IMG/VR virus record: IMGVR_UViG_3300019776_000564
Coordinates: 1 to 64,000 of that record
DNA from: a virus
Reading direction: 5' to 3' (one strand)
DNA: 64,000 nt
In this document: positions 1,058 to 36,779 of the stretch, one piece after another
Numbering within the stretch: the first letter of the stretch is position 1
Layout of the letters: every line of letters starts with the position of its first letter
Made by a program: the position numbers and the translations under genes
The notes under the pieces: model-generated
Told to the model about the DNA's origin: nothing
The model's input: the letters and a program-made list of their open reading frames with translations, nothing else
The model's database searches: none

Positions 1058-1088
1058 CCGTCAAACCCCTACTTTAGAGCGCTAACAT
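1058..1088 (+). promoter_or_regulatory. CC-N8-CC-N13-TAACAT promoter-like site (first of a family, see findings); overlaps a 12-bp-arm palindrome at 1074-1099
   Basis: CC 1058-59, CC 1068-69, TAACAT 1083-88; TTAGAGCGCTAA-CA-TTAGCGCTCTAA. Confidence 0.65.
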
Positions 1089-1123
1089 TAGCGCTCTAAT
1101 TCTTTATAAAGAGTGAAAGCGCA

Positions 1124-2029
1124 GTGACTAACGAATTTAAATCGAAAACCGTCGAAGTTAACCCAGCCGATTTCACCAAAGAGAAGTGCTGGGAAAAGCT
1201 TGAGAATCTTGCAGAGATCTTGAGCGTCCCGGGTCTTCTTCAGGCAGAACTGAAGCTGAGTCCTAAGTTCGGCAAAGCCTTCGACGACAAAAGCAAAGAA
1301 CTTCTTCACCTGATCGTCGATAGCTTCGACATCGCAGAGCGCGGCACCGACGAGTCGGTCGAAAAGATCTCCAAAGCCATCAACGATATTCGGAAGATCA
1401 AGTTTGACCACTTGATCGAAGAGGTTTCTATCGGTGCTCTGGCCCTTCAGAACCTCGATATCAGCGAGGTCATTATCCATATGGAGAAGGCTGAAGAGTC
1501 TGATCTTCCGGCGGGTGATGTTGATCGCGTCAGAAAGTTTGCCGAAAACCTCGACATCGACAATGACTCCATCGCCATTGCGAAGATCCACCCAACCATT
1601 TCAAAGATCATCCGTGCCGGCGTGTTTGCAGCCGGCAGTGAAGCTGCGTTCACTGAAATGCAAATGTCCGCAATGATGGCTATCCCCGAGAGCAGCCGTG
1701 AAAATCCTTCGGTAGTTCTTGCAGGGCAAATCACCGGCGCTCTGACGAAGGCGATCATTTCCAAAGCCATTGAAGAAGATATGGTTCGAGTTACGGCTCG
1801 CTCTATCATCGAAATGGTTATCGGCGCCAAGCAAGCGATCTGCATGGATCTCATTGCACCGTTCCAACTGAGTCCGGAAAACATGATCGATTCGCTTCAC
1901 GCCAGTGTGAAGCGCAGCATCCTTGATAATGGCGAGGAGGTTGAAGAGGTTGAAGAGGACGAGTCTCAGAACATGCCTTCTATCAAAGAAACCTCCCAAG
2001 TTTTCTCTGGCAACGGAACTGTGAACTAA
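1124..2029 (+). CDS. Hypothetical acidic protein
   Basis: 301-aa ORF downstream of promoter motif. Confidence 0.8.
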   Translation: MTNEFKSKTVEVNPADFTKEKCWEKLENLAEILSVPGLLQAELKLSPKFGKAFDDKSKELLHLIVDSFDIAERGTDESVEKISKAINDIRKIKFDHLIEEVSIGALALQNLDISEVIIHMEKAEESDLPAGDVDRVRKFAENLDIDNDSIAIAKIHPTISKIIRAGVFAAGSEAAFTEMQMSAMMAIPESSRENPSVVLAGQITGALTKAIISKAIEEDMVRVTARSIIEMVIGAKQAICMDLIAPFQLSPENMIDSLHASVKRSILDNGEEVEEVEEDESQNMPSIKETSQVFSGNGTVN

Positions 2030-2030
2030 G

Positions 2031-2396
2031 ATGAATGCCAAGCAGCGCAAAATCGCAGCCAGAATGCGTGAACGTGCGCTGCTTGACTCGGATGAGAAGC
2101 TTCGGAAGATAGAGGCTTCTCTTCGCGAGTTGGCAGCGGAACGTCAAGAGTTCGAGGAGAATTGCCGTTCGGTAAAGGAAACTCTCGCCGATCAAATCAA
2201 CAAGCACAACAAAGAGGTAACTGAGTTCCGCGAAGAGCGAGCAAACGCTATGAAAACTTGGCTAGAAGAAACTGGCCGACTGGAGAACGTTAACATCGTT
2301 CGTGAGGCTCTTCTTCAACTAGAGTTGGATGTAGACCCAGCGGAAATTGCTCTGGGTATCCGAAAGCAGCTTGGACTGATAATCCCGGAGTGGTGA
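2031..2396 (+). CDS. Hypothetical coiled-coil protein
   Basis: Tightly packed ORF. Confidence 0.75.
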   Translation: MNAKQRKIAARMRERALLDSDEKLRKIEASLRELAAERQEFEENCRSVKETLADQINKHNKEVTEFREERANAMKTWLEETGRLENVNIVREALLQLELDVDPAEIALGIRKQLGLIIPEW

Positions 2397-2397
2397 T

Positions 2398-2721
2398 GTG
2401 AATAGCATTTTAGAGGATGAGGTTCTTCAAGAGACAAAACGACTTAAAGCCCTCAATAAAGATCTCGTTAATTGGTCGCAAGAGATCGAAAAGAAAGAGG
2501 TCGAGCTTTACGAGCTTCGTGACTCTCTTGAGTGCCGAGAGTTCACGGTTGATGATCGAATTGAAAAGCTCAAGAAGGCTGAGACTCAAATGAGGGCGAT
2601 TAACAAGCCTGTCATCGACCTGATCAACGAGGTTATCCTTATGCTTGAGCTTGAAGCAGACAAGGATGAAATCCTCAAAATGGCAATCGAAAAGCGAAAA
2701 GCGTTCGACATAAATTGGTAA
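2398..2721 (+). CDS. Hypothetical coiled-coil protein
   Basis: Tightly packed ORF. Confidence 0.7.
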   Translation: MNSILEDEVLQETKRLKALNKDLVNWSQEIEKKEVELYELRDSLECREFTVDDRIEKLKKAETQMRAINKPVIDLINEVILMLELEADKDEILKMAIEKRKAFDINW

Positions 2722-2761
2722 ACTCGGGCGCTAACGTCTAATCCAGTAAGAGAAATATCAA

Positions 2762-3814
2762 ATGACCAAAATCATCAAAACGCCTGGCGATTTCGATTTC
2801 GACAAAGGCATCACCGCTCAAGAGCGTGCGCTGAAGGTCATCAACTCTCGCCGTGTAATTCTCGGCCCAAATGATGATCTGATGTCCCCATCGCCAAAGA
2901 AATACGATATGCCGATGCGTATTCTGGATAAGGCTCTGCGTGACGACTGGAAGCACTGGCACGTTTCGCTGGTAGACGACCTGCGAGACTTCCGTACTCT
3001 CGATTCAAAGGTTCGTCGCTCTGTTCAGATGAACCTGGGTTTCCTGTCGAACCTCGATGGCATCCAGTTGAGCACGCTGGCAAACAACATTCAGGCTCAC
3101 ATCACAGCGCCGGAATATCGAATGGCTCTGACTCGTCAAGCCTACGAGGAGTTGGTTCACGTTCTGACCTACGACCACATGATCACGTCGTTGGAGATGG
3201 ACCCAATCGAAACCTACAATCTATTCATGACTGACGAGATTCTCGAAGCCAAGAACAGACACATCCTCAAGATGGCAAACCTGTTGGGTGACGACTTCAC
3301 TGGCGAGAACTTTGTTCGCGCTATCGTTGCCAACCAAGCTTTGGAAGGCATCTACTTCCAAATGGGCTTCAAGCGCTTCTACATCCTGCATAAACGCGGT
3401 CTGATGGCCGGCTGTGCGCAGGATATCCGCTACATCCAGCGTGACGAAGGTTCTCACCTGCAAATCTTCAACAGCATGTGGCGAGACGTTCGTAAGGAAA
3501 ACCCAGAACTGTTCACCCCGGCCGTCATGAAAGATTGCAGCGAGATCCTGCGCGTGGCTGGTGAAATGGAGATGGTCTGGAACCGCCATGTGAATCAGGG
3601 TGGTCAGTTGGGTATCACTGACGAGATCAGTGATGGCAGCATCATGTTCGGCACCAACGGCGTTGCGCGAGCAGTGGGCATCGAAGAGCCTTTCCCGCAA
3701 GTCAAGAAAGACCCTCTCGCGTGGACAGACGCCTATCTCAAAGAGCATGGCGTGGAGTCGAACTTTTTTGAAACCAAAGTCCTTGACTATGAAGACAAGG
3801 GTTTGGAGTGGTAA
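2762..3814 (+). CDS. nrdB: Ribonucleotide reductase beta subunit
   Basis: Di-metal motifs EELVHVLTY, LEGIYF, RDEGSH; C-terminal NFFETKVLDY. Confidence 0.95.
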   Translation: MTKIIKTPGDFDFDKGITAQERALKVINSRRVILGPNDDLMSPSPKKYDMPMRILDKALRDDWKHWHVSLVDDLRDFRTLDSKVRRSVQMNLGFLSNLDGIQLSTLANNIQAHITAPEYRMALTRQAYEELVHVLTYDHMITSLEMDPIETYNLFMTDEILEAKNRHILKMANLLGDDFTGENFVRAIVANQALEGIYFQMGFKRFYILHKRGLMAGCAQDIRYIQRDEGSHLQIFNSMWRDVRKENPELFTPAVMKDCSEILRVAGEMEMVWNRHVNQGGQLGITDEISDGSIMFGTNGVARAVGIEEPFPQVKKDPLAWTDAYLKEHGVESNFFETKVLDYEDKGLEW

Positions 3815-3833
3815 CGCCAAGTAGCTGAACAAG

Positions 3834-3860
3834 ACCCGGCTTAATCGCCGGGTTTCTTTT
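3834..3860 (+). terminator. Rho-independent terminator
   Basis: ACCCGGC-TTAATC-GCCGGGT followed by T tract. Confidence 0.8.
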
Positions 3861-3992
3861 GGCTAAATTTCAGTAAATCGCGGCAAAAATTTAGGACGGA
3901 TAGAATTTTAACCTTACACATAAGCCGACAACTGCCTTGTTCTACGTGACAGAATCATCTTGAGCTAAAAACGTATAGCGAGGTGATTAAGG

Positions 3993-4331
3993 ATGCGCTT
4001 TGTGAGAGCTTTAAAGACGTTATCCGCTGTTATGCTGATCTCTAGCGCTGCAATGCTCGCAAGCGTCTCAGAGAGCGTTACAGCGTCTTCCCAATGCGAT
4101 CATGAGCATCATCATGATCATGATCACGACGACGATAGCGATACCGACTACAAGCACCCGCATATTCACGCAAAGCCGGATCGATACGTCAGACCCTATT
4201 CAAGCAGTCAAGGCATAAGAGGCGACTTTGACCCCTATAATGTCTTCCGCAGCGAAGACCAAGAATCAGATTACGACCGCGATCATGGTCGTAATATGTA
4301 CGACGAATATCCCGATGAACCAGAAGAGTGA
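3993..4331 (+). CDS. Probably exported His/Asp-rich protein
   Basis: Signal-peptide-like N-terminus then HEHHHDHDHDDD; own promoter motif 3925-3955. Confidence 0.65.
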   Translation: MRFVRALKTLSAVMLISSAAMLASVSESVTASSQCDHEHHHDHDHDDDSDTDYKHPHIHAKPDRYVRPYSSSQGIRGDFDPYNVFRSEDQESDYDRDHGRNMYDEYPDEPEE

Positions 4332-4339
4332 AATGAAAC

Positions 4340-5302
4340 ATGGCTAATACGCACGACTCTACCTATCTTCGACAGGTAAAAGGTCTGCTTGAGTACGGTC
4401 GAAAAAGCAGTGATCGAACTGGCACTGGCACAATCAAAGCTGCCGGCCTGTCCATGCGATTTCATATGGACAACGGCTTCCCTCTGCTGACCAGCAAATT
4501 CACCAGTATGCGGTTCATCGAACTGGAACTTCGCATGTTCCTGAACGGTATCACGGACAACAAGTTCCTGGCTGATGAAGGTGTCAATATCTGGACGCCG
4601 TTCGCCAACGAAAACGGCGATTTGGGGCCTATCTACGGTTCTATTTGGCGCGGCATCGATAGCGACGAGCAGCCTGTGGATCAGATCACCGAGCTAATGA
4701 AAGGCTTGCGTGAGAACCCAATGAGCCGCCGGCATATCGTTACTGGCTGGATTCCCAAGCTTCTGCCTGTCGAAGGTCGAAGCCACGCTGAAAACGTCAA
4801 TAACGGTCTGCAAGCGCTCCCACCGTGTCACACCATGTGGCAAGTTCACTGCTGTGAGTTGACGGTAGAAGAGCGTGAAGAGCTGGCTCAGAAGTCGCAC
4901 AAAACCTACCCGGTTCTTGAAAGCGATGAGCAGCGCAATTGCGTATTCGATAACCTGAATATCCCACGTTACGGCGTCAGCTTGCAGCTCTATCAGCGTT
5001 CGGCCGACATGTTCCTGGGTGTGCCGTTCAACATCGCTTCTTATAGCCTGCTGCTGCATTACATCGCGCACAGTCTGAATATGAAGCCTATGGAGTTCAT
5101 CTGGAACGGTGGTGACTGCCATATCTACAACAACCACATCGAGCAGATGAATCTGCAAATCTCCCGAGAGGAAGAAGCGCCGGCCTCTCCGACCATTCGC
5201 TTCGCGTGTGCTCCTAAAAATATCTGGGACTATACGGCTGATGATTTCGAGATCGTCGGCTATAAGCACATGGGCAAAATTCAAGGAGACATGGCTGTAT
5301 GA
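4340..5302 (+). CDS. thyA: Thymidylate synthase
   Basis: DRTGTGT, FPLLTSK, LGPIYG, ALPPCH, YQRSADMFLGVPFNIASY, GDCHIYNNH. Confidence 0.97.
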   Translation: MANTHDSTYLRQVKGLLEYGRKSSDRTGTGTIKAAGLSMRFHMDNGFPLLTSKFTSMRFIELELRMFLNGITDNKFLADEGVNIWTPFANENGDLGPIYGSIWRGIDSDEQPVDQITELMKGLRENPMSRRHIVTGWIPKLLPVEGRSHAENVNNGLQALPPCHTMWQVHCCELTVEEREELAQKSHKTYPVLESDEQRNCVFDNLNIPRYGVSLQLYQRSADMFLGVPFNIASYSLLLHYIAHSLNMKPMEFIWNGGDCHIYNNHIEQMNLQISREEEAPASPTIRFACAPKNIWDYTADDFEIVGYKHMGKIQGDMAV

Positions 5303-6144
5303 TGCTCAAGCAAATTTCGCTGTCTATGACAGATAGCGGCGCGATAGGTGTTGGTGACAATCTCCTGTTCTTGTCGAAGGCTGATCTTTTAAGATTCTCC
5401 AAGTTCACTGCCGGCACTGTGATGATTGCTGGGTTTAATACCGCTCAGCAGATGATCTCCGGCGGCGCGAGAATCACTAAAAGCCGACCACTTGTGGTTA
5501 TCACTGAAAGTCGCCATATTTCCTTTCGCCTAAACAGCGAAGAGGGCTATGTCTACTACGCGTCCAGCCTGAAAGAGGCTATCAGTCTCTCTTCGGTGCT
5601 CTGCGAAGAGTATGGTCTTAACGGATATACGATTGTAGGCGGCGTGACCGTGTACAACGATTATCTTGAAATGGTCGACTTGGGCAAAGAAAGGCCGAAT
5701 AGCGCCTATATCTTCAAGCATGAGCTTGATCCATCTAAGCCTGTTCATCCTGAAACGCGCAGCATCAAGCTGGACTTTAAGCGGGTTCTTAAGTTGCTTG
5801 AAGCGCGCATGGTTGACCCGGCGATCAGTTCGATAAAGGCTGACATTCACGGCGGCACTTACAGCGCTCAAACCCGAAGCAAAGGTGGCGAGATCATCAC
5901 CATCTATGACCAAGACTGTATTGACCCAACCTGCGCTCGCAAGATTGGCAATCAGCTTCGCATCAAGTCGGACGCTTCGACGGCGACCATTCGCACTCGC
6001 TCCATCGCCGGCTGGCACGTAAGACGAGATATTCAGTCTGTGGATATCTGGCTCGAAAGCGGTGAAAGCGTTACCTTACGCACAAGCAGTAAGTCCGGGT
6101 TGAACTCCCTGATTTTTGAATTGAACATGACTGCGTTCGACTAA
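5299..6144 (+). CDS. Divergent dihydrofolate reductase-like protein with C-terminal extension
   Basis: GAIGVGDNL..DLLRF..T..IAGFNT, IVGG..VY; coupled to thyA. Confidence 0.65.
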   Translation: MMLKQISLSMTDSGAIGVGDNLLFLSKADLLRFSKFTAGTVMIAGFNTAQQMISGGARITKSRPLVVITESRHISFRLNSEEGYVYYASSLKEAISLSSVLCEEYGLNGYTIVGGVTVYNDYLEMVDLGKERPNSAYIFKHELDPSKPVHPETRSIKLDFKRVLKLLEARMVDPAISSIKADIHGGTYSAQTRSKGGEIITIYDQDCIDPTCARKIGNQLRIKSDASTATIRTRSIAGWHVRRDIQSVDIWLESGESVTLRTSSKSGLNSLIFELNMTAFD

Positions 6145-6194
6145 ATCAACTAAAGGCTCAGCGTGTTGCTGAGCCTTCCACCAAAGGAAATACC

Positions 6195-6842
6195 ATGCCT
6201 CATCCTCAGTTTATCCTCGCCGTAGAAAACGAAACTCTGATCAAAGCAGGTCTCACCGGAGTTGAGCAGGAGCTTCACGTTCTACAGGTTCAGGATTTCC
6301 TACCTCATATCCAAGGTGGCATCGTTATTGGACAGCGCGAAGCGCTTGAGGTTGACGAGTCCAAGCGTCAGATCCTCCCGTACATCACTCTGACCAAGAA
6401 GATCGACGGCGTGCAGAAGTTCTTCGCATACCGTCGCGGTAAAGGCGTTGGTGAAAGTCGTCTGAGCGGCAACGTCAGCATCGGTGTAGGCGGTCATATC
6501 GATCTCGCCGACGTTGTTCATACCGGCAGCGTTATCGATACCATGAGCACTGTCATCACCGCAGTGACCCGTGAACTTGGAGAGGAGATCGAGTTCACTG
6601 GCGACGGTGATGTTGGATTCAACAGCATCGGTGCAATCGTAGAAAACACCAACGCTGTTGGTCGAGTTCACATGGCTCTGTCCATTCTCGGTATTGTTTC
6701 AGAGGACACAGAGGTCAAGTGCGCAGAAGAAGAGTTGGAAACGCTTGGCTGGTTTACCGCAAAAGAGCTTCTGAACTCCGGGTTGCCTCTCGAAAACTGG
6801 ACAAAGATTCTCTGCAACTTCCTCGCGGAGAATGAAGAGTGA
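6195..6842 (+). CDS. NUDIX-family phosphoesterase
   Basis: KRQILPY, SIGVGGHID, RELGEE, VGRVH, LENWT. Confidence 0.8.
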   Translation: MPHPQFILAVENETLIKAGLTGVEQELHVLQVQDFLPHIQGGIVIGQREALEVDESKRQILPYITLTKKIDGVQKFFAYRRGKGVGESRLSGNVSIGVGGHIDLADVVHTGSVIDTMSTVITAVTRELGEEIEFTGDGDVGFNSIGAIVENTNAVGRVHMALSILGIVSEDTEVKCAEEELETLGWFTAKELLNSGLPLENWTKILCNFLAENEE

Positions 6843-7429
6843 GCAAACTCATTGGCGTTGTAGGTGTAATGGGAACGGGTAAAACCACTCTCTGCGCTGA
6901 GAGCGGCTATGAGTTCATCAAGACCGACGTGTCCGGGATATATAAGCGAAACAACCTTGATCCTAAGGTGTTTATGGATTTCGATACTCGTCTGCGGATT
7001 CAGGAAGAGATTCTTGAGTACCACAGCGATATCTGGATGAAGGCTAAAAATGACTCGATGACGGTCATGATCACTGACAGAACGCCGCTTTGTTTCATGG
7101 CGTTCACCCTTGCAGAGATTAGCGGTTATGGATCGCTAACAGAAAAGCAGGATCAGGATCTAAAGAGCTACATTCATCGGTGCTGGTTGGCTATGAAGCT
7201 TTTCGACGGCATCGTGTATCTCAGTCAGTCATTCACGCCTCCTGTAGACCTCTCTGGGAAGGTTCGAGCCTCTATGTCATATGGTTATCGAGAACACTAC
7301 GATAACCTTCTGAAGGGGCTTATGAGCGACATGGATGCTTATCTGGCTAAGTGCGACACATCCGATAAGATTGCAAGGCTTTCGCGCCTTCATCGGTTTG
7401 TTCGCTATGTGAACTGGGTATCGACTTAA
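6839..7429 (+). CDS. P-loop nucleotide kinase-like protein
   Basis: GVMGTGKT, ITDRTP. Confidence 0.75.
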   Translation: MSKLIGVVGVMGTGKTTLCAESGYEFIKTDVSGIYKRNNLDPKVFMDFDTRLRIQEEILEYHSDIWMKAKNDSMTVMITDRTPLCFMAFTLAEISGYGSLTEKQDQDLKSYIHRCWLAMKLFDGIVYLSQSFTPPVDLSGKVRASMSYGYREHYDNLLKGLMSDMDAYLAKCDTSDKIARLSRLHRFVRYVNWVST

Positions 7430-7509
7430 CGCCCATGTAAGCCCTCAGTAGAAAAGTTAGACTGTCAGCTATCAAAGTGACAGTCTTTTTTATTGAAGGA
7501 GAACAAGCA

Positions 7510-8205: not shown

Positions 8206-10296
8206 AACGTTTATTTAAGGATGTTCAATTGGTTCTGACATCGGCGATCACCCTGGCAATCGGTCTGGCTTTTGGTGCTGTAATTGGCTCAGCGCTTGTA
8301 GATAAGCCTAACGAAAACGAAACGAGGGCGGCTCAGAACGAGCTTTGCCTCAAGGCCAACATGAAGCCTATTCTCGAAAAAGGCGAAATCGTCTGCTCTC
8401 CAAGTGAGGGCATTCAGTTGATCCGCGACTTCTTTGACACAAAGATGGCTAGCATTGTGATCGCTGAAAAGCTGCGACAAGAAGGCTTCCGCCCTAAAGG
8501 TGACGTGAACTGGCCTTCTGATAAAAAGGAAGACTTCAGGAAGCTGAACCCAATTGACCCAAACAGCTTTGAAACCAAGTCTAAGGTCACTGAGTAATGA
8601 ACGCATCTGAAGCCTTTTTGAAGTTCTGCAAGAAGAAAGGTATCAAGCCTAACGGTCAATTTGCTGAAGAGAATGGCTATCTATTCGTTGAGGGCTACAA
8701 GGTCGGTCACAAGACTGCAAGCGACCGAGTGCTGAAGTTCCAGCGCATGAGCAAAAAGGCTTCTCAAATGCAGCTTGAGGAGCACACAGAGGTTCTTGAG
8801 AAGTTCCTCAGGGTTTATCAGGCCGCTATTGCAGTCGTCAAAAGTGAAATTGCGGATGTAGCTGTTCATCCGTGTGACGAGAACAATGAAGAGGTGAAAG
8901 CTAAAAAGCTCCCACCTCTTCTTTCCGACCTTTACGAAGCGCTCAAGGATGTCCCTTGAGCATTACAAGTGGAGATGAAAATGAGCAAGCTTAGTCGTAG
9001 CCGTAAGCGTGAGATCCGGGAGAAAGTTCGTGAAGCTGTAGCTTGCGAGATTCGCGATCTGGACGCAAAGGTGTTTGAAAACATCGCGGAGAACGAAGAG
9101 GAACAGGCTTACGTGATGAAGGAGCGTGAAGAGATTGCCGCTCGCATCAACTATAAGCCGACAGGTGATAGCGAGTGAGCCAAACAAAGCTGCAATCTCT
9201 GAAAGAGACGCTATCCAACACTTTCATTGGCATGTTGGGTAGCTGGCTGATTGTTCTCACCTGCATAACCTACATTCAAAACAACCTTGTAGCGGCAACA
9301 ACCTCGACCATCCTTTGCACCTTTTGGAGCGTTGGTCGGGGTTACTGTGTTCGCCGCTACTTCAACAAACGAGAGACAGCATGAAAAAGCTTACAGACAA
9401 GGTTCAGAAACTCGAAGCTCGGGCTAAGCGAACCCTTGCGAAGAAACAGGCAAAGAAGCTTGAGCATCAGGCGGCAAAGTTCCGAGAGGACAGCTTGAAG
9501 CTTGGCTCGCAGCTTTCGGTTGCAGGTCAAAACATCTACAAGATCAACCATCCGGCGTATGAGGAGCTTATCCTCCCGCTTCTTGAACGAGCAGCGTCCA
9601 TCGCAGCGTTCTATGGCTTCAACGCGCTGTTTCAGGTTCATACGCCATTTGAAGAGCAGCCTCTGTTCACCAGTTGTATTGGTACGTTAAACGAAGAAAC
9701 CATTACCCCGACAATGCGCGGCTGCATCGAACTGATCGAGAAGCGCCCTGTCATTGGCAAGGTCAATGACGAGCTTATCTCTAAGCCTCGTACTGAACCT
9801 CTGATCCCCAAAGAATAGCTGCGATAATCACTGCTCATTAGTGAGGTGTTAAATGAGCGACGAATACTGCCTTGATGACGAACTCACCCGTAAAGCGGGT
9901 GAGGCTGCGTTATGGCTTGATGGGGAGATCAAGCGAGGAGGTCTTACACGATTTGAGGCTTACAACGCCCTTATCGTGTTCGATATGATCACGCTTGGCT
10001 TGATAGACCCGAAGTTCAACGACTGGGCGCGTGAAGAGCGAAACAAGGCTGCTATTGCCTATCCCGACAAGGTTGTTATGCACGCATACAACGCAAAGGG
10101 AGAGGAAACAGTTATTTCCGTTTCTCTTCGCCGTTCTGTGGGTGAAGTGGTCGTAACGCAACTGACCAGAAACCCGGAGTTTACATCGAAGACTCATACC
10201 TTTGATAACGAACCCGATCCCGTAACTGCTGCTTGCAAAGGCTATCTCGATATCATCGATAGGCTCAAAAGCAAGGGCTGTGTGGTGGTAGCCTAA
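8202..10296 (+). CDS. Run of six hypothetical ORFs (8202-8597 membrane-anchored, 8597-8959, 8969-9178, 9175-9384 membrane, 9381-9818, 9853-10296)
   Basis: Overlapping start/stop packing. Confidence 0.7.
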
Positions 10297-10297
10297 T

Positions 10298-10864: not shown

Positions 10865-10930
10865 CTGCCGACTCTTTCCTGTGTGCGCTGCGTAAAATCA
10901 GCGCACAATCAACAACATAGAGCGCACAAC

Positions 10931-11260: not shown

Positions 11261-11262
11261 TC

Positions 11263-12344: not shown

Positions 12345-12493
12345 GTTGACTAGAGGCTCCCGCATCAAAGCCACACTCTGCCTTGTTGCGCTCTGTATCA
12401 TGAGCGCAACAGCTAAAACGCTAAGTAGCTGATTCGATTAGCTTTATATTTAGCGGTACTCACTCAAATATCAAAATCAAATAGGTGATTCGC

Positions 12494-14279: not shown

Positions 14280-14397
14280 AGTCTGTCGATAGCGCAGCTT
14301 ATACGAGCTTGTAGGCATGGCTTAAGTCACAGACTGCCGGGATAAGCCTATAAGCTGCGCGTAGAATCTAAGCATGTAGATCTATAGGAGTTCCAGA

Positions 14398-15286: not shown

Positions 15287-15373
15287 TCTAGGCTAAATTC
15301 TGGCGCCCAAATAAAACCTCAACGCGCTCTGTAAAATCAGAGTGCAAACAACAACTTAGTGAGAGTCCAAGCA

Positions 15374-19235: not shown

Positions 19236-19336
19236 TAAGTTTGGCTGTCAAATGGCAGCCAAACTTACCTATCTCAAAAGCTCGTAGAATCAACGCTCAA
19301 ATCAATGACTTACGTTAGCGCGTAACTTGAGCGAGG

Positions 19337-24756: not shown

Positions 24757-24855
24757 GAAAGAGCGGCTGTCGGTATTTTATTGGCAGCCGCTTCCTGCCT
24801 CTATTTATAGCTTAAAATTCGCATGTGTTAATAACAACGCATGAGAGTAGAAAGC

Positions 24856-25425: not shown

Positions 25426-25458
25426 TAACCATAAACAAATTCTGATCATGTGGTGAAA

Positions 25459-27302
25459 ATGAAAAGCCTCGAAACGTTGGTTGAAGTCCCGGAAGAGTTG
25501 AAGGGTATCTACTCTTCATTGGAAGAGTTGAAAGCTGAGTTGGCGATCGTTGCGCCAAACAGCGAGCGCAACGATGTTCTCATGGGTAAGATCTTTGAGA
25601 AATTGACCACTGCTGAGGCAGAAGAGGTCAAGAAAGAGATCACGGAAATCGCCGTTGCGATGAACGATCTGATGAAAAAGCGTTTCGGTGAACCAACGCC
25701 AGAAGCAATTACTGGCCTCATCGTGTTCTCCGACTTGCTGCACGAATACTGCGAACCGCCGGCACTATCGTCTGAGCAGTTTCACGTACTTGTGGATTCA
25801 GGCGCCTTTGACGAACTGATGACGGGTACAGGCAAGTAGTAGTAAGCGCTTGCAAAGTCCAACACCTGCCACTCGCTCTCTCGTAAACTAGCTTTAACGC
25901 AGCGCAAAAGCTGCGATTTACGAGAGAGCTTTCCCATGACCGACAAGAATATCCACCTCGCCAGCAATAAACTGATCGCCGCAGCTTTTGAAGCGGCCGC
26001 TGTTGGAGAACCCGGGCAGTGTGTTATCGGGGTTTTCAAAGGTCTCGCCATCACAGCCTTAAAGTTTGAAGCTGTGACAGAGCGAGAAGGTATTGTTCGA
26101 GCCATCTGCACTGGCCCAGATAACAGTATCGTGGGGATCTGCGAAGCCAAAAAGTTTGAAGATATCCACGACTACCTAATAACCCGGTGTCAGCTAGCTC
26201 CTGCTCGCGTGAACTATGAGTGGAGCAAGTTCATCACCGCGAATGAAGCCGCTCTCCCCTACAAAACTCGCTTTGAAGAGGCTGAGTTGTTCAACAAGGC
26301 CAGCGAAGAAGCATCTCTAGGAACGATGGGTCAGTTTGAAGCTAATGGCCTCATGTACAGCATCGTTCACAATTCCGCGTTTCGCATCGTCGATAAAGAC
26401 GCCAGCAAAGATAGAACCAATCCAGAGTTCTATACCGTGTACATCCAAAACTCATCCGTGCAAGACCCTGATGAGTGTCTGGTCGACACAGAGTCGTTCG
26501 ATACCACGTTTGAAGCGATTGTGTTCATTCGCAACCACATTGAAAAGTCCCTGATGAAAGAATTTATGCCGAAAATGTTCTAACTCACACAACCAGTTGG
26601 GGTGAATAACATGATCCAGAAAAAGATAGGCAAAATTACCTTCGGTGCCGGAATCATGAGCTTTGTGCCGGCCGACATAGACACCAGTCTCAGCGATGAG
26701 GTCGTTTATATGGCTGCTCTGGGTGACGCCATCAACAACGCAGGTGGTCACCGAAGCTTCATGCGAGAAAATGGCTTTGTCCGTCGCAACACACTCGGTC
26801 ATATTCAGATTCAGGGAGAAGGCTGGATCATCGATTTCAAGAGCGAAGAGTTTATTACCGAGTTCAATCGCCTCAAAGACTCGAAAGACTGGGTAGCTTT
26901 CGCCGCACTGTCTCAGTTCGACACAGTGACCTCGTTCGATAACAAGGGAAATAAGAAGCCATGAGCCGCATTGACCTGATCAAACAAAAGCTTGGCGAAC
27001 CTACCTTGATTCACACAACCTGGGGTGTCGCAGAAAAGTGGCTGTTAGGCGCTCGCGTATCTCTGATCAATTGGCCTGAGAATGCCGGGACGTATCTGTG
27101 CTTTATCCCAACTCAACAGCAAGACTCTCGGCAGCTTGAGTGGCGTGCGGGAGATCAAGCTGCATGGTTCAGAGAACTGTACCCACAGTTCGATAAGATC
27201 AGCCTGTCTCACAGTCAGACCATCAGCAGAGAAGGCTTTGATGAGTGGCTAGATAAAGTGATCGCAGCTATGGCGCTCATAGCAACAAAGGGCACGCTGT
27301 AA
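25459..27302 (+). CDS. Four hypothetical ORFs (25459-25839, 25936-26583, 26602-26964, 26961-27302)
   Basis: ORFs; terminator-like hairpin at about 27324-27350. Confidence 0.7.
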
Positions 27303-27799
27303 TTATCTAGTAAACGCTTGCACAAAAGCCTGCTCTAAGCAGGCTTTTTATTTGGTGAACATAGCGCCTTGGAATCGTGAACATGTGTAAACCATTAACA
27401 TTCTGATGCACAACCTTAGGCGCGACAAAAGCCAACAAACATAAGGGTGAAAAGCCTGTTTACCCGTGTTCGAATGTTAATGGGTTGTTAATACCCATGC
27501 AGAGACGAGACAGCGATCAGCTAAGACAGAAATTTGTCTCTGGGAAGACGTCTGAGAGCTTCTACAAGACGAGAACCGGATATAAACAAGTCAGCGTACT
27601 GCTCAAACATTCCCATCGCTTATACGAGCTTGTAGAAGCTCGACCATTTTACGAAAACAGAACTTTAGGACTCCGGGTTAGTTACCTGTTTGGGAGCCAA
27701 CTCTTCCCTATTTAATAACTAGATAATACAAGCTGAAGTATTAAATAAGGGAAGGGTTGGATGAGGCTCTTACCCTAGAAGCCAAAGAGAGGGAGTTGC

Positions 27800-28674: not shown

Positions 28675-28836
28675 ATACGGCTACCGCTTAACCCAAGCAC
28701 GTATCCCGTGTAACCCCATAGCTGTCTAGCTAGACTACACACAAGCGCACACAGATAGCGCTACGCAAGACCATTGGTAATGAAACAAGCAAGTCATGGA
28801 AGTCAACAAGCCCTTAAACCAAGTGGAGTGTTAACG

Positions 28837-29121: not shown

Positions 29122-29236
29122 GCTTCGACGTGGTAAAGGCTGTAGTGACCGTAAAGCTTTCTTAAGCCTCTTACGGTCACTTTCTTAAAACCGTTTTAAC
29201 CAAGGCAAACCTAAAGAAAAGCAGGAGCACACAAGT

Positions 29237-30077: not shown

Positions 30078-30439
30078 AGGATAGAACCACATAGGGAATG
30101 CGTAGAGGTGTAGAGAGGTATCTGTAGAGAACCATAGAGATATGCAGCGTAAGAAAGACCTGTAAGGAAGGGCGTGGTTCCTATAGAGGTGTAAGGGGTT
30201 GATGTAAGGAAGGAGGGGTGGTGTGTATTCAATTCACTGTCTCTATCTACCATCACAGGCCAAACCTTACAGTCTGAGTACGGTCTATCTAGCTCAGGCA
30301 CACATGACGGTCCACCTAATCCCGGCACACAGACACACCTACGCGTGATAAGCAGAACCTTCTGATAAGTACAGAGGAAGCCATCCGGTAGCCTCTGTAC
30401 CTCTAACACTTACCTCTCTTCTCTCTATAGACTTCACTC

Positions 30440-30683
30440 ATCAGCTAGAAACAAGCGTAGACAAGCAGCTAGCAGACACAGTGGGAAGCGCTCTGAAAGC
30501 TCGCACAAGCGACGAACCAGATTTACAGATATCAGAGCGTAGACAAGCAGAAGAAAGAGCTTCCCAGCGTGTTACAGAATCGAGCCAGGATAGGGCGCAT
30601 ATACTATCCCTCTCTCTTACTCCGCCTGAGGAGTATTCAAGACCACAGTCATTCCCTCTCCTTTATGACTGTGGTCTCTTTTT
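30440..30683 (+). ncRNA. Putative ~245-nt small RNA
   Basis: CC-N13-TAGACT at 30413-30433, internal helices, 13-bp terminator 30640-30683, no credible ORF. Confidence 0.5.
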
Positions 30684-30710
30684 ATCAGCAAGCCCGGGAC
30701 TCCACGGGCG

Positions 30711-33700
30711 CCGCGGCTTTAACAAACACCATCTCTACCCAATAAGACCCAAGCCCCAACAGTGCCGCGGCTAGCTTTAATAAACGCCGGGCCGTGGGAC
30801 ACCGAGTCCTTGGTAAGATTGGAGCCGCGGCAAGCCACTCTATGGATAGATTTGGGAGAACCAGAAAAAGGCTATAGGTGCCGTTATATATCACCAAGGT
30901 GCGTGTTTACCGCGGGGATAAGAGATAGGCATTACCAAGAGATAGGTAAGAGGCTTGCCAAGGCGTTTAGCCGCGGGAGCCATGTTTACAAATGTTGGTT
31001 TATTCACCGTCTGCCAAAATTTCTCTTACACAGGCACAGAGGTTAAACACGGCTTATACGGTGATAGAGGTGAAAGCAGGCTGAGATAGGTCTACCGCGG
31101 CGGGTATGATGCCTAACCTTGGTTGTTTGAACCACCCGGTATGCCGCGGCTCGGCGGTGTTAAAAACCATAAAACAGGTACTAAACAGGCTACCGGATAA
31201 CACCACTTGCAAGCGTTTACTATGAATCAACTCAGAGCAACAGACTCTGGGAACACTGAGAGAGCACCTATGAAAGACCTGAACGTTTTGCTGAAACAAA
31301 TGCAGGCGCACGAAAACGGTATGACTCTTGAGCAGTATCTGGGTCACTTCACCGAAGTCACCAAAGAACAGCGCCTGTTCAAGCTTGAAAGCTGTGAAGG
31401 TGACACCGGGTTTCTGCTGCGCAACGAAGATGGTTGCTATCACATCTGGTACGTGAGCACCTCTACTTCTCCCCTCTATGAGGGTGAGCGTTACCACGTT
31501 ACAGAAACCGGAAGCTGGTATCCCAATCAGCTCAACGAGGCCATGACTGACCTCATGCTGCAAATGAAGATCGATTGTGCGGGGTTGATCGAGCGTAACG
31601 GGGTGAAAATTCGGTAGAGATGAAACATAGGGGCTTCTGCCCCTTTCTTGTAGATAGGTTTACCGCGGCGATTTTATGACTCCCGACACATACCTAAAGC
31701 AAGCGTTTACTCTAATGTTCTACGCACATGAGAGAGTAACCGATGAACAAGCTCAACTTCGCCGCATACCGGTATGCGCTGAACAACGCCAAAGAAGAAG
31801 TGCAAGATGGCCGTTACTTTGGCGTTAACTGTGTAATGGTTGAACTGGTCAGCATCGACCAAGATGACTATCTGGTGATCTACAGCGCAGTAGAAAACAC
31901 TGGACCAGATACGGCCAACATTTTCTACAACGGTGAGCACTGTGCTGGTGTTATACACATACCCGGCGATCAGTGGTCTAAAGCAAACACCGTATTCACA
32001 GAGTTGTTTGGTGTAGCTCTGAAAGACGGTTTGCGAGGTGTGAAAGCGTATTATGACTCAGTAGCGTAGAAATACGCTCACGGTATAGCGCTGTGAGCTT
32101 CTATAACGCGTTTTGAGAGCTTTACCGCTATAAAGATGAGTCGATGTACTGCTTGTCTTGGGAAAGCGCTCAAAACGCGTTATACGAGCTTCTAGATAAG
32201 CCGTGGCAAACGTCTGTCCCAGTACCTATTGCCAACAAGTGCCAATTGCAAGCGTTTACTATGATCTCAGTGAGCAGCGACACAGCTGCCGTTACTGAGA
32301 GAGTGATATGAAAACCACAGACTTCAAGGTGCTAGCGCCGGTTGCAGTGAAGGGTAAGAGCCTTCGTGAGCTTCAAAAGGCTTTCGTGGCCTATCGTGAC
32401 GACAACGATCTCGGTTCTCGTGACCTGAAACGCTATGACGGCTGTGTGTATCGCAGTGGTGTGCTTGTAGGCTACTTCTCGTACAACGGTCGCTTCTGGC
32501 GTAAAACGATTCACGGTCAACCACTTCACGTCACTTCGTATCACGGGAGCTAACGCCATGCAAAAGTACCAAATTCGCTACACAATCGGTGACAGCGCTC
32601 GCTGCCGTTACTTTGAAGGTGAATACGAAAGCGAAGGTGAAGCTATCGAAGACTGGGAAGACTACTGCGAGCGCTTCGACGACGGTGTTGATTTCATCGA
32701 TTGCCGTGAATTTGCAGAAAACGGTAAAGAGTTTATCGAATGAACAAGCTTGAACTCCGGGAGTTTCTGGAAAAGAAGGCCGCTGAGTACGCCTCGCGTA
32801 ACCCTATCTATACCCATGCAGAGAGCTTTGACCAAGAAAAGCGCCTCAAAGCCAAGATTGAGACCCGTAAGAAGCCTGCAAACCTCACACAAGACGGTTA
32901 TGTGGTGTATCTGAACGAGCTTAAAGTCGGCACTCACAAGACAGAGGTTAAGCCTTCAGAAGACTTGTGGGACGTAGAAATGCCCCGTTATGAGGTTCGC
33001 TACAAAGAAAGGGGTAGTACGGTAATCAAGAGATGGCGCTGCTATGCCCAAGATGCAGACGAAGCCATTGAAGACTTCAAGCACCTGTACAAGAAAACAA
33101 GCGTGGTGAAAGCTTGGATCATCGAGGCTATTAAAATTAGCGAATAGCCATAAACAAAAAAGCCACTTCTTGTTAGAAGTGGCTTTGTTCGTCGGGTATA
33201 GGCATAGCCTATACCCTAGAACGGTAGATTGTCAAGAGCCGCGGCATAGGTTTGTTTACCAACATATGCCAATAGCAAGCGTTTACTATAACAACAGATC
33301 GAAGCAAACGACTTCGACAGTAGAGAGAGCTTTACCATGATTGATTCCCAGATTCTCGCCGGATTATCCGAAGAGCACCGTGAGCGTGTTCTGAACATGA
33401 ACCGTGTAACACCGTTCTTGATGATGTGTGAAGCTGTAGGTTCAGAGGCTCTACCGTCGCAGATTGCTCGCCTCGAAGAATCTGCCAAGAAAATGTTTGC
33501 ACCTGAGTATCGCTTCTATGCTCACCGCGCTGCCGAACTTTGCGGCATCAAGCTGAACCTCGAACGCACCGAAACTGATAATGACGGTATCCCACTATGA
33601 TCGCCACAGCAGTTGTTCAGAAAACCGTGTTTCTCGTAATCATGGCCTGCACAGGCATGAGAGATACAGCCTGTGATGATTCTGTCTATGCCGAATCTTG

Positions 33701-34811
33701 GTATGGCCCAGAAAGCAAAGAAGAGTGCGAAACCTTTATCCACCGTAAAGAGTTCGACCCCAGTGACTACCTTACTCTGGGTAATCATGAATACTACGCA
33801 GTGAGGTGCGAGTGATGAACAACTACGGCTATGAAGTGAAATACTGGGATGCAAACGGGAATCTTCTCTGTGTAGAGGTAGTCGTAGCTGCACCCGAAGA
33901 CTGGCGCTATGCAGAGCGCATGGTTCTAGAGCAGTCTCATGTGACCACTGTAGAAAGCTCTGTGTTCCTGGGCATGACCGACACTGCACCCGGCATTCAA
34001 GAATCAACCGTTCTTGTACTGAGAGAAGCAGAGCCAGAGTAATCTGGCTTTTAAACACAGCCGTGCCGCGGCAAACCTATAGTAGAGGTAGTCCACGGTC
34101 TATAGGCACTAGGCATGACGGTCCATGGACTCCCGGCACACAGGTCATGCGTGTATGGTTCTCTTAAGCCGTTCTAAGAGGTTTACCGCGGCGCGTCCTT
34201 GGGCCGACCCGGGTTAGTCTTCTAAACGCCTCCTAGTGCCTCTCTGAGAGCTTTAAACTGCTTGTATAGCAGCGTCAGACTGCTACCAGACATTGAGAGA
34301 GGCTCCACCATGAAATTGATCTGCAACGGGTTCAAAACCACTGGTACAGACAGTGAAGACCATATCTACTTCTTCAAAGCCACTTTCAGCGGTGAAGACC
34401 TGTTTTTCGAGCTGACCAACAGTGAAATCGCCGAAATCACTGATGACGGTGATTACCAGCTCCCACCACGCTTCGATTTTGGTTTCCGTGAACCTATGAT
34501 CTGCCAGCTTCTTCACTGGATGCATACCGTCTACTGGAAAGACGAAGACGGGATTCTCGAAGGTTGCACCATCGAAATGACTCGACCAGAAGGTGTCTAA
34601 CCAGAGCAGCCCGGTTACACCGGGCTTTCTTAGCTATCTCAGAGCCGCGGTAAGCCGATCTCAGCCAATATCAACCTTGGTCCAAAAAAGGCTATAGGTG
34701 CCGAATATAGGTATAAGGCGGGCTTTGGACATATGTGGTGTAGTCCCGCGGCGCTCTCAAATGAGAATCATTCTCAGGGGCGCTGCGAATCGTTCTCATT
34801 CGCGACCGCGG
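30711..34811. repeat. 14 intergenic CCGCGG-core motifs (extended consensus GATAGGYTTRCCGCGGC, both orientations)
   Basis: Starts at 30711, 30765, 30825, 30910, 30971, 31095, 31144, 31663, 33239, 34066, 34186, 34645, 34746, 34806. Confidence 0.85.
31270..34600 (+). CDS. Small ORFs in separately promoted units (31270-31617, 31743-32069, 32308-32553, 32558-32743, 32740-33147, 33337-33600, 33597-33815, 33815-34042, 34310-34600)
   Basis: Each unit has a CC-N8-CC-N13-(-10) motif and a GAGAGAG RBS on its first gene. Confidence 0.75.
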
Positions 34812-34979
34812 TTGAGACGCATTCTCAAATGCAAATGATTCTCATTCTCAAATACGAATGATTCTCATTTCACTCAAATGAGACGCATTCTCAAATGCAA
34901 ATGATTCTCATTTTCAGACAATAATCGTTCTCATTCTCAAACAAGAATTTATCTAATTCTCAAGTGCGAATGATTCTCA
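34762..34979. promoter_or_regulatory. Array of nine Fur-box-like 15-mers
   Basis: TGAGAATCATTCTCA (perfect 7-1-7) plus eight variants; 34-bp direct repeat 34813-34846 / 34879-34912. Confidence 0.7.
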
Positions 34980-35098
34980 ACACCTGTCTTCTCTTATTAC
35001 ATGCGCACGCGCGCAAGTAGCACAGCAAATTAGAATGAGCAAGAATTTTTTAGTTATATGCTTATGCTTTTCCGATCTATCAAATATCTAATAATCGC

Positions 35099-35126
35099 TT
35101 GCATCAAAATCTAGTTAGTCTAATAT
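35099..35126 (+). promoter_or_regulatory. Sigma70-like promoter of the CC/GG-free operon
   Basis: TTGCAT-N16-TAATAT. Confidence 0.5.
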
Positions 35127-35206
35127 TCAACTCAAGCGACGCAACAACGCGACGCTAACGAAGTAGCTCAATAACGAAGCTACTCACTTCTAGAGAGAGA
35201 TATAAA

Positions 35207-35761
35207 ATGACTCAAGTTAACGCTAAAGCTGTAGCTAACAAAGAAGCTTTTGAAGTTGTTGCAGCTGAGTTTGCTGCAACTAAAGAGCAAGCAAGTGCGC
35301 AAGCTGCTCAAGCTCAAAACGACGAAGAGCGTAAAGCGTTTGCAGATGCTGCTAAAACAGCGTCTACACACGAACGCTACACTAACGCACTTGCTAACAT
35401 GAGCGAAAAAGCGCTCGCAAGTTTGAACAAGTACAAAATCAACGCTACTGAACTTGCTAAACAATCGCGTGAACTGAAAAAGCGCTCTATTGCGATCATC
35501 GAAGCGATTGTAACTAAGCAACGCGTTAACGATCGCGCACTTGACGCAGTGTTACAGTACATCGTCGCTAAAGACGCTGCGAGCATGACGCTTGAGCAAG
35601 TGCGCACGCAAATGCAGCACGAAACTACTACGCAAGCGCAATACTTCAAAACTTGCGCAATCTTTTTCAACTTCGCGCAGTACTCTAAGTCTGAAAAGAC
35701 TATCAACTTCAACAAAGACGCTACTGTCTTGAAAGAGTTGATCGCGATCTACACTGTGTAA
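35207..35761 (+). CDS. Island protein 1 (184 aa; no Gly/Pro/Trp)
   Basis: GAGAGAGA RBS; followed by hairpin plus T tract at 35772-35808. Confidence 0.85.
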   Translation: MTQVNAKAVANKEAFEVVAAEFAATKEQASAQAAQAQNDEERKAFADAAKTASTHERYTNALANMSEKALASLNKYKINATELAKQSRELKKRSIAIIEAIVTKQRVNDRALDAVLQYIVAKDAASMTLEQVRTQMQHETTTQAQYFKTCAIFFNFAQYSKSEKTINFNKDATVLKELIAIYTV

Positions 35762-35829
35762 CAGTGTGCGCAAGCGCTCTAGAACGTCTCTAGAGCGCTT
35801 TTCTTTTCTAGTCTGAGTGAGACAACGCA

Positions 35830-36129
35830 ATGAACAAGCAAATCGCTGTAAACGCGCTACAGAGCGCTACAGAGCAAGCGCTGCTAGACGTGCAAGCTAG
35901 CGTGCTGCATATGCTACAGAATCGTAGTGCTGAGACGTACTATCAGCACGCACAAGCGCTGCGACATACGCTCACATACGCTAGCACTGAGTATGTGTTT
36001 AACGCTGTTAAACGACACGTGCAGCGCACTACAGCGCAACGTGTGAGCATGAAGCAAAGTATCAGTGTATTGCGCAGTGATATACGCGCTGCTATGCGTG
36101 CAGATAAGTATTCATTGTTTGCACACTAA
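35830..36129 (+). CDS. Island protein 2 (99 aa; no Gly/Pro/Trp)
   Basis: ORF with GAGTGAG RBS. Confidence 0.7.
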   Translation: MNKQIAVNALQSATEQALLDVQASVLHMLQNRSAETYYQHAQALRHTLTYASTEYVFNAVKRHVQRTTAQRVSMKQSISVLRSDIRAAMRADKYSLFAH

Positions 36130-36164
36130 GTTATTTAAACTTTTCTCTTCTTACTTGTGAGTAT

Positions 36165-36497
36165 ATGCAAATGACTAAAGTATCGTTCTCTAACGTTATC
36201 GCTGACGCTTTCAGCGCTGAACAAATGCAAGATATCAGCAAAGCAGACTATAACAATCTGCTTTCTATTCTCGACATAAAGTCAAAGTATATCGAGTTTG
36301 TTAATAACGCTGAGTGCATGCACTTGCTTATTGTGCATGATGCGCGCAATAACAAGTATGAAATTGTTAGTGTGTATATCAGCGCTAACTTAGAGCATTA
36401 TCAAGTAACGTTAGTTGATACTTGCGATACACTGTCAGACGCATATAACGAACTGCATAATTCGTTGCAACTTCTACTCAGTGAGTGCGACAACTAA
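36165..36497 (+). CDS. Island protein 3 (110 aa, acidic; no Gly/Pro/Trp)
   Basis: ORF. Confidence 0.75.
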   Translation: MQMTKVSFSNVIADAFSAEQMQDISKADYNNLLSILDIKSKYIEFVNNAECMHLLIVHDARNNKYEIVSVYISANLEHYQVTLVDTCDTLSDAYNELHNSLQLLLSECDN

Positions 36498-36505
36498 GTT
36501 AGTTG

Positions 36506-36684
36506 CTTACTTACACTTTTCTAAGTTGTCAAAGTCTTAGAAAAGTGTAAGTAAGACGTGACCCTACTCCCTTCTAAATCCCGGATACCTGCACTCTAAC
36601 CTTACACAGGTAGGTAGGAAGTTCCCACACGCTCTCCTTACACAGGTAGGAACAGGTTCACAATACAATCCCTTACACAGGTAG
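36506..36684. repeat. 20-bp perfect inverted repeat plus three CCTTACACAGGTAG direct repeats
   Basis: Arms 36506-36525 and 36536-36555; repeats at 36600, 36636, 36671. Confidence 0.9.
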
Positions 36685-36779
36685 CCTTACGCTCCCAACG
36701 TCTTACGCACATACTTGATAAACAGTCAGCGCTGATAAGCAGCTAAGCACTTAACCACTAAACACTTAAGGAGTTACCC

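Follow-up and report, generated by a model that had tools for sequence, protein, structure and literature searches.

The first 64,000 nucleotides (nt) of the IMG/VR virus record IMGVR_UViG_3300019776_000564, referred to here as the window, belong to a complete phage genome of 108,018 bp whose record ends overlap each other within nrdA. In this study we focus on a family of predicted promoters of this phage, in which two CC dinucleotides separated by eight nt take the place of a -35 box, the second CC standing 13 nt ahead of a -10 hexamer (CC-N8-CC-N13), and in which a stretch of about 44 bp behind the proximal CC is empty of further CC or GG. All positions are counted from the window start. 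Nearly all genes lie on the + strand, and most of them belong to no known family. Nucleotide-metabolism genes and numerous small open reading frames (ORFs) occupy 1-37 kb. A - strand block and apparent tRNA genes follow at 40-47 kb, then genes for packaging, structure and lysis at 47-80 kb and for replication and recombination at 80-104 kb. In its structural and replication genes the phage shares about 77% DNA identity with the Pseudomonas syringae phages nickie, ZY21, phiK7B1, hairong and Nican01 (genus Nickievirus), and in the early region almost no alignment with them is possible. Promoters were compared across seven genomes, namely this phage, nickie, hairong and four IMG/VR contigs identified by means of a conserved protein encoded nearby, with the 110 kb relative G001 and Rhizobium phage RHph_N1_15 serving as distant comparisons.

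The initial annotation had listed 18 promoters with the exact CC-N8-CC-N13 spacing between 1 and 37 kb, and inspection of the sequence showed all coordinates and hexamers to be correct. Searching the window with the pattern CC.{8}CC.{13}[TCG]A...T gave 27 matches on the + strand, against 6.25±2.5 (maximum 13) in 200 dinucleotide-preserving shuffles, so that the proposed enrichment was borne out; the - strand gave 5 matches, against 7.8±2.6. The whole genome contains 36 matches on the + strand and 11 on the - strand. The nine other + strand matches in the window look like chance hits, lying inside genes or having a CC or GG soon after, and six further full sites at 82-101 kb bring the genome-wide number to 24. 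The CC signal is independent of how the sites were selected, because it also arises when intergenic TA...T sequences are used as the only anchor: CC then peaks at -25 (15%) and -15 (14%) from the hexamer, compared with about 5% elsewhere. Furthermore, a relaxed search that asked for the proximal CC, the N13 spacer, the -10 and the empty zone found 33 + strand sites, and the distal CC stood exactly 8 nt upstream in 24 of them, where the background is about 4%. The same search recovered the distal CC at 17 of 25 sites in nickie and at 19 of 27 in hairong.

The strongest additional feature of the sites, absent from the initial annotation, is the CC/GG-free zone. With CC and GG mapped around the sites, neither occurs for at least 35 nt past the second CC at any of 23 sites in this genome or of 20 sites in nickie, while the genome-wide frequencies are 0.099 and 0.131 per position. 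When columns are numbered from the first C of the distal CC (index 0), the pattern matches fall into two groups: the next CC or GG comes by index 43 in chance matches, or at index 47 or later. The late group piles up at index 54-58, which corresponds to +17 to +21 if transcription starts 7 nt past the hexamer, and it is confined almost entirely to one strand (24 + and 1 - here, 17 and 0 in nickie, 19 and 1 in hairong). The zone thus reaches at least +10 and usually about +18. Within the window, the matches that have no CC or GG over index 11-45 are exactly the 18 listed + strand sites plus one on the - strand; 300 shuffles yielded 0.66±0.80 such sites with both strands taken together (maximum 4). 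Gaps of at least 42 nt between successive CC/GG dinucleotides are rare (75 of 10,715 genome-wide), and one third of them begin at the proximal CC of the family. The left edge of the long empty runs is CC in 49 cases and GG in 26 here, and in 48 and 7 cases, respectively, in nickie. The initial annotation had considered four defined base pairs to be very little information for a promoter; this does not hold, since the sites also carry the exclusion of CC and GG over about 44 bp, flanking G or C, and the -10.

Several properties of the zone bear on its nature. At sites with short leaders (7433, 15307 and 24788) it extends into the coding sequence, which shows that its reference point is the promoter, not the untranslated leader. 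Hairpin stems within the zone are GC-rich but made of GCGC, and therefore what is avoided is the GG:CC step and not G+C. GG and CC are avoided to an equal degree, which points to a reader of double-stranded DNA and not to an RNA feature. The ban is also specific to the CC class: a sigma-70-like promoter at 44520-44560 (TTGCAA-N18-TAGTAT), ahead of an apparent + strand tRNA cluster (no tRNA scan was run), has both CC and GG where that class has none.

All 24 full sites lie upstream of a + strand ORF, with deduced leaders of 7-77 nt and, over all sites, a distance of 14-84 nt from site to start codon. Several stand directly behind a stop codon or a terminator, and three (7433, 82427 and 87850) overlap intrinsic terminators. 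The genes served include nrdB, thyA, an exonuclease gene and many small ORFs, and the sites outside the window serve operons around primase, ligase, cobT/cobS, dnaE and sbcCD; none of the 24 lies in the structural and lysis module at 46.8-80 kb. The hexamers match TATAAT at 4.4 of 6 positions on average (A at position 2 and T at position 6 being imposed by the search), and C or T followed by A is enriched 6-7 nt past the hexamer. Upstream, no -35 hexamer resembling TTGACA was found 16-18 bp from the -10: the best match averages 2.38 of 6, compared with 2.43 at random genome positions, and reaches 4 of 6 at two of the 24 sites. An extended -10 (TGn) is present at only four of the 24. Promoters that have a -10 only, with neither -35 nor TGn, are weak when unaided. 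Judged from the sequence, this is a real, strand-specific and gene-proximal family of predicted promoters with a sigma-70-type -10 and no -35. Since -35 matches do not rise above background and TGn is rare, the sites probably need an extra factor, by analogy with T4 middle or lambda CII-dependent promoters. A consensus promoter scan of 27-47 kb found sigma-70-like sites to be rarer than in shuffles (10 versus 20). Reading CCGACA as a variant of TTGACA was rejected, since the spacer would then have to be 19 bp long and only a subset of the sites agrees with it. Dcm (CCWGG) and CCD-type sites were also considered; the CCs never precede C, yet no GG follows.

The spacers had been described as poorly conserved, which is broadly right, apart from weak preferences for G or C before each CC, for T at index 8, and against C after the CC, where it never occurs. 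The comparison with nickie, based on 17 orthologous promoter pairs matched through the downstream protein, gives the same picture: the four C positions reach an identity of 0.985 and the -10 one of 0.84, while the N8 spacer has 0.49, the N13 spacer 0.62 and the flanks 0.33-0.45. Orthologous promoters of nickie, hairong and three uncultured relatives likewise retain the CCs, the -10 and the empty zone between diverged spacers. Every orthologous promoter examined in the seven genomes has the proximal CC and the empty zone. The distal CC is retained in most of these genomes, even inside a terminator hairpin loop before cobT, and some lineages lose it at some promoters. Of 16 sites with the core in G001, five have a distal CC; in RHph_N1_15 the core is CC-N13/14-CTAT with the empty zone, preceded by a -35-like TTGCA, and the distal CC is found at none. 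Across the genomes compared, the universal and ancient part of the predicted promoter is thus the proximal CC at -27/-26 with the -10 and the exclusion zone, and the CC pair one helical turn apart is the form of the nickie-like phages.

The sites of the window, all on the + strand, begin at 1058..1088, where the hexamer TAACAT lies within the loop of a GCGC-type hairpin and no CC or GG occurs until +54, ahead of an ORF at 1124; in the nickie orthologue (71523) the CCs are kept and the hairpin shows compensatory changes. The site at 3925..3955 (CAGAAT, CC/GG-free to +20, nickie 75140) precedes an ORF at 3993, which is followed by thyA and a DHFR-like gene. That at 7433..7463 (TAGACT, free to +28, ORF 7477, nickie 78644) overlaps the 5' arm of its terminator. 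At 9798..9828 (GATAAT, ORF 9853, nickie 81501) the zone reaches only +10, the first GG being that of a GAGG ribosome site. The hexamer lies in a hairpin loop at 10868..10898 (TAAAAT, free to +30, nickie 82574), at 12371..12401 (TATCAT, free to +47, ORF 12485, with orthologues in nickie and hairong) and at 15307..15337 (TAAAAT, free to +23 and so into the coding sequence, ORF 15359, nickie 87425). Between the last two, the site at 14337..14367 (TAGAAT, ORF 14398) is free to +13, where a GGAG ribosome site provides the first GG. Further sites are found at 24788..24818 (TAAAAT, free to +45, ORF 24841, nickie 95362), 25859..25889 (TAAACT, free to +37, ORF 25936, nickie 96414), 28706..28736 (TAGACT, free to +28, ORF 28774), 34229..34259 (TAAACT, free to +20, ORF 34310) and 36685..36715 (CATACT, free to +33, ORF 36780). 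Beyond the window the full sites are at 82427, 83264, 84663, 85518, 87850 and 100818, with spacing variants at 90012 and 95354. Two variants that the initial annotation had set apart were confirmed. One, at 19259..19291 (ORF 19337), reads CC-N7-CC-N15-TAGAAT and has a 66-bp CC/GG-free run behind the proximal CC; the other, at 30403..30433, has only the proximal CC (30413, the distal position being CT), followed by N13, TAGACT and a CC/GG-free run of 69 bp.

Membership of the match at 27697..27727 (GATAAT) is ambiguous, as it lies in the left arm of a long hairpin spanning 27697-27760; the sole - strand match with an empty zone (27760) is the opposite arm of the same hairpin. This is one of three long AT-rich hairpins flanked by CCCTT...AAGGG and free of GG and CC inside, the others being at 51335-51400 in the window and at 79915-79976 in the genome, and RHph_N1_15 has three similar elements at 7466, 21500 and 50649. 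These hairpins may be late promoters or boundary elements. The hairpins that carry a -10 hexamer in their loop are of another kind: they occur at eight or nine sites and have stems of 8-12 bp of GCGC type, located in the window at 1075-1105, 10885-10912, 12386-12415 and 15323-15350, and elsewhere in the genome at 82440-82475, 85530-85560, 90025-90055 and 95370-95400. Their stems differ between genomes yet remain complementary, with four of nine pairs compensatory at the cobS promoter. An RNA beginning at the predicted start excludes the hairpin, which would therefore act in DNA or in read-through RNA.

Four sites form a subfamily in which CC-N8-CC is followed by GCAAGCGTT and a TACTAT-type hexamer: 31193..31223 (TACTAT, CC/GG-free to +19, ORF 31270, nickie 102113), 31683..31713 (TACTCT, free to +20, ORF 31743), 32232..32262 (TACTAT, free to +20, ORF 32308) and 33259..33289 (TACTAT, free to +39, ORF 33337). 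The leaders of this type (31240-31270, 31725-31743, 32285-32308, 33310-33337 and 34290-34310) have a small hairpin and then GAGAGAG instead of a GGAGG ribosome site, so that the leader stays free of GG. The first of these sites lies in a 1.2-kb non-coding region (30078-31269) rich in CCGCGG and in GTAGAG or ATAGAG words, and CCGCGGC is also found about 20 nt upstream of the distal CC at 31683, at 33259 and at nickie 102113. The 11-mer GCAAGCGTTTA occurs ten times with at most one mismatch, in both orientations, where 1.2 occurrences are expected (25843, 27311, 31209, 31699, 32248, 33275, 35092, 37547, 40135 and 53564). Copies in one orientation occupy the spacers of the four TACTAT promoters, and the opposite orientation includes the CGCTTGCA -35 region of a different promoter, described below. 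The 11-mer may be an operator.

This different promoter precedes an island at 35072-36562, in which 1,489 bp contain neither CC nor GG and three ORFs encode no Gly, Pro or Trp. Equivalent GG/CC-free runs are present in nickie (1,136 bp), G001 (1,068 bp) and RHph_N1_15 (1,149 bp). The island promoter at 35099..35126 (+), TTGCAT-N16-TAATAT, is of sigma-70 type and forms a contrast class, as it has a -35 box. CGCTTGCAy-N16-TAnAnT precedes the orthologous island gene in this phage, nickie and hairong, and the island promoter of G001 is CGCTTGACG-N16-TAAACT. The arrangement fits a two-step program, suggested by the promoter sequences, in which unaided host polymerase would read the island first and the CC class would follow. 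Just upstream of the island promoter, 34760-34980 holds a dense array of ATTCTCAAATGCGAATGATTCTCATT variants that looks like iterons or operators. At the other end of the island, 36600-36684 contains three exact copies of CCTTACACAGGTAG, 35-36 bp apart, located between the island end and promoter 36685, which follows them directly, and the distal CC of that promoter begins a fourth, partial copy.

The first island gene (35207..35761, +) encodes P0001, a protein of 184 residues without Gly, Pro or Trp whose nickie counterpart is gp019. Its AlphaFold2 model (pLDDT 95) shows a long helical hairpin, or coiled coil, together with a helix/strand domain ordered like a winged helix, and its local Foldseek hits are MarR-type domains (probability 0.97-0.99, E about 0.3). 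The P0001 family comprises 77 protein clusters; the protein itself matched no Pfam or PHROG family, and the RHph_N1_15 island gave no sequence or profile match to it. We infer from the model that P0001 is a candidate reader of the CC sites. A second candidate is a 181-residue protein (gp102 in nickie) encoded between cobS and dnaE, which has four invariant cysteines (Cys4) and a predicted C-terminal winged helix (Z 7-8.6), and which is kept as far as RHph_N1_15 (28% identity, E 8e-16). In that phage (L005:16493-17655) a Sigma70 region 2 protein (E 1e-8) is encoded directly upstream of the homologue; the nickie-like phages retain only the second gene of the pair, between cobS and dnaE. Taking the 181-residue protein for the Rhizobium phage sigma was rejected, because it is homologous to the sigma's neighbour instead. 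From their models, it is plausible that both proteins bind DNA. Foldseek and VIA-align gave generic winged helices only for the two models, and their weak resemblance to MotA (N-terminal domain, E 0.32) and N4 RNAPII (E 0.65) does not count as evidence.

Known factors were sought by six-frame searches of this genome. MotA (PF09114) and AsiA (PF09010) gave no match at E <= 1, a search that very diverged analogues may escape, and neither did CII (PF05269). There was no match to Sigma70 region 2 (PF04542) or to the Rhizobium phage sigma, to TGT/DpdA, C5 or N4/N6 methyltransferase domains, or to T7-type polymerase (PF00940), the last search having no positive control. Pfam and PHROGs scans of about 55 proteins likewise showed no sigma, MotA, AsiA, CII, RNA polymerase or DNA-modification domain. 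Ahead of the terminase gene lie two ParB-like genes and one for an ABC-type ATPase; Pfam found no GNAT domain in this cluster, and the protein annotated as a DNA methyltransferase in nickie is a ParB-like protein in which Pfam and PHROGs show no methylase domain. At the DNA level, the MotA box (a TGCTT core centred at -30) is absent from index 2-9 and from the individual site sequences, and the CII site TTGC-N6-TTGC is not present either, its period and position being the same while the half-site here is (G/C)CC.

The geometry of a lambda CII site combined with the logic of T4 middle promoters leads us to favour a phage activator acting on two (G/C)CC half-sites. The early and middle promoters of this phage would be used by host sigma-70 polymerase together with such an activator and would carry, in addition, the GG:CC exclusion zone, a reading that we consider evenly balanced between right and wrong. 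Host RNA polymerase with its primary sigma factor would read the -10 (TAnAAT or TAnACT, 13 nt past the second CC), and transcription would most likely start about 7 nt downstream of the hexamer. The half-sites, on the non-template strand at about -37/-36 and -27/-26, would replace the -35 box; one helical turn apart, they would lie on the same face of the DNA and flank the would-be -35 position. A phage-encoded DNA-binding protein would bind them in tandem and recruit or stabilise polymerase, in the manner of lambda CII, PhoB and T4 MotA. From just past the proximal CC (-25) to about +18, approximately the extent of the open complex, the GG:CC step is barred on either strand, presumably as a reader of that step inside this stretch would block polymerase. 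Such a reader might be the activator itself bound at misplaced sites, or else a base mark. Two CCs in the right places, and no others, would thus make a promoter.

Several observations speak against this activator model. At about one third of the sites the -10 lies in the loop of a conserved hairpin, which an activator leaves unexplained, and at a few the zone ends as early as +10 to +16. Some lineages dispense with the distal CC, and it is mostly missing in the distant relatives; the two-site reading may therefore hold only for the nickie-like group. Moreover, symmetric dimers usually bind inverted and not direct repeats, the winged-helix predictions concern fold only, with weak E-values in the structural searches of both candidates, and the transcription starts of this phage group are positions deduced from the hexamer.

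The fixed distance between proximal CC and -10 in every lineage would also suit a phage-encoded or remodelled sigma-like factor that reads the -10 together with a CC element, chiefly the proximal CC at -27/-26, with no separate activator. RHph_N1_15 indeed encodes its Sigma70 region 2 protein beside the winged-helix homologue, and its promoters, GCAAyCC-N13/14-CTAT, resemble the AAC -35 box of ECF type. However, sigma region 4 reads a single contiguous element of 5-6 bp and not two dinucleotides 10 bp apart, and with the six-frame searches of this genome and the Pfam scans of about 55 of its proteins empty of sigma domains we judge such a factor unlikely. To a similar degree we doubt that the GG:CC steps are chemically modified, the idea put forward in the initial annotation. 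In the form considered here, marked CCs would be recognised, and both the polymerase-covered stretch and the immediate-early island would have to stay free of marks. Marking would explain the ban on CC and GG in DNA covered by polymerase, and it agrees with the equal avoidance of the two dinucleotides as one double-stranded feature, with a zone that ends near the downstream edge of the open complex, and with the conservation of a GG/CC-free island of 1.0-1.5 kb in nickie, G001 and RHph_N1_15. The ParB-like genes and the ATPase gene also speak for it, and the many genes of no known family leave room for an enzyme. On the other hand, no modification domain of the types sought was found, and we know of no enzyme that marks a bare dinucleotide. 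Host polymerase still transcribes T4 DNA despite its bulky glucosylated bases, so that marks need not block initiation.

A different kind of explanation is that the CCs are not read at all, the -10 alone sufficing and the zone having been cleared of GG and CC for another reason, such as escape from a nuclease or from type I-F CRISPR. CC serves as the type I-F protospacer adjacent motif (PAM), and P. aeruginosa phages targeted by that system are depleted of it (PMC12174588); GG and CC are under-represented throughout this genome (rho 0.80-0.81). Yet a CC left over from clearing would not keep a fixed 13 nt to the -10, nor a second CC an exact N8, and the long empty runs would not be bounded on the left by CC in preference to GG. 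About 25 separate patches of 44 bp would give no protection with thousands of PAMs remaining elsewhere, and a lone -10 without TGn makes a weak promoter, which together make this quite improbable. Least probable of all, and in our view hardly credible, is that the sites are not promoters and act instead as RNA-level or DNA-structure signals with a -10-like loop, such as processing sites, terminators or hairpin promoters for a phage polymerase. The hairpins with a hexamer in the loop, the compensatory changes in their stems and the overlap of three sites with intrinsic terminators would fit this. Against it, two thirds of the sites have no hairpin and still have the CCs, the N13 spacer and the hexamer; the hexamer consensus is of sigma-70 type, even if two of its positions were set by the search; all sites lie shortly ahead of a start codon; and the search for a T7-type polymerase, run without a positive control, was empty.

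Among known systems, lambda CII-dependent promoters (pRE, pI and paQ) come close to the favoured activator model: they have a weak or absent -35, a normal -10 and a direct repeat of 10-bp period at almost the same positions. The lambda CII repeat spans the -35 region at about -38/-35 and -28/-25. The differences are that the half-site here is (G/C)CC and not TTGC, that no CII homologue is found, that about 25 lytic early and middle operons are served here as opposed to three lysogeny promoters, and that lambda has no GG/CC-free zone. The CII site has been described as a TTGC-N6-TTGC direct repeat with a 10-bp period (PMC2629481). In T4, AsiA and MotA appropriate sigma, redirecting host sigma-70 polymerase to a temporal class of promoters in which the -10 is kept and the -35 replaced (PMC2988021, PMC6755090). 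The CC promoters similarly keep the -10 and have a phage-specific element instead of a -35, but in T4 that element is one MotA box of 9 bp around -30 and not a pair of dinucleotides, and T4 has no dinucleotide exclusion zone. The parallel with T4 middle promoters drawn in the initial annotation is therefore fair as a description of the mode and not of membership, as the sites show no MotA box and no MotA or AsiA homologue was found in the genome.

At class II promoters of PhoB/OmpR proteins, tandem direct half-sites repeated every 10-11 bp take the place of the -35, and the winged-helix protein contacts sigma region 4. Pho boxes share with the CC sites the direct-repeat half-sites of about 10-bp period in place of a -35; unlike them, pho half-sites are 7 bp long and the activator is a host response regulator, and no receiver domain was seen in the candidates here. 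N4-type hairpin promoters have a hairpin near -11 at every site, versus only about one third of the sites here, and the PF00940 search, lacking a positive control, was empty. The island, as distinct from the promoter family, resembles the pre-early region of T5 and other site-poor regions that are injected first, where a small block comes first with promoters usable by unaided host polymerase; to our knowledge, T5 bans no single dinucleotide and its later promoters follow no such rule. Nican01, of the same genus as nickie, has long direct terminal repeats as in T5 (PMC11256456).

A -10 combined with a phage-specific upstream element is a familiar scheme. What is unfamiliar is the exclusion zone of about 44 bp, to which we found nothing alike in the literature searched; publications on these phage names or on dinucleotide avoidance at promoters contained no description of the CC-pair motif either. 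The zone has a sharp end, matches the stretch covered by polymerase, and is kept from Pseudomonas to Rhizobium phages. More tentatively, and with clearly less confidence than we place in the activator model, something in this clade of Pseudomonas and Rhizobium phages, either a covalent mark or a phage protein, may read the bare GG:CC step and bar initiation wherever the step lies between -25 and +18, so that the promoter code would be written largely by dinucleotide exclusion. If this were true, the same agent would shut off the host, since nearly every host promoter contains a GG:CC step, and the first operon of the phage would be one written entirely without that step. The promoter rule also ties the GG/CC-free early operons to transcription initiation and narrows the possible readers of GG:CC. 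It offers a testable rule for a family of siphophages of about 110 kb whose regulation is unstudied and which includes biocontrol candidates against Pseudomonas syringae.

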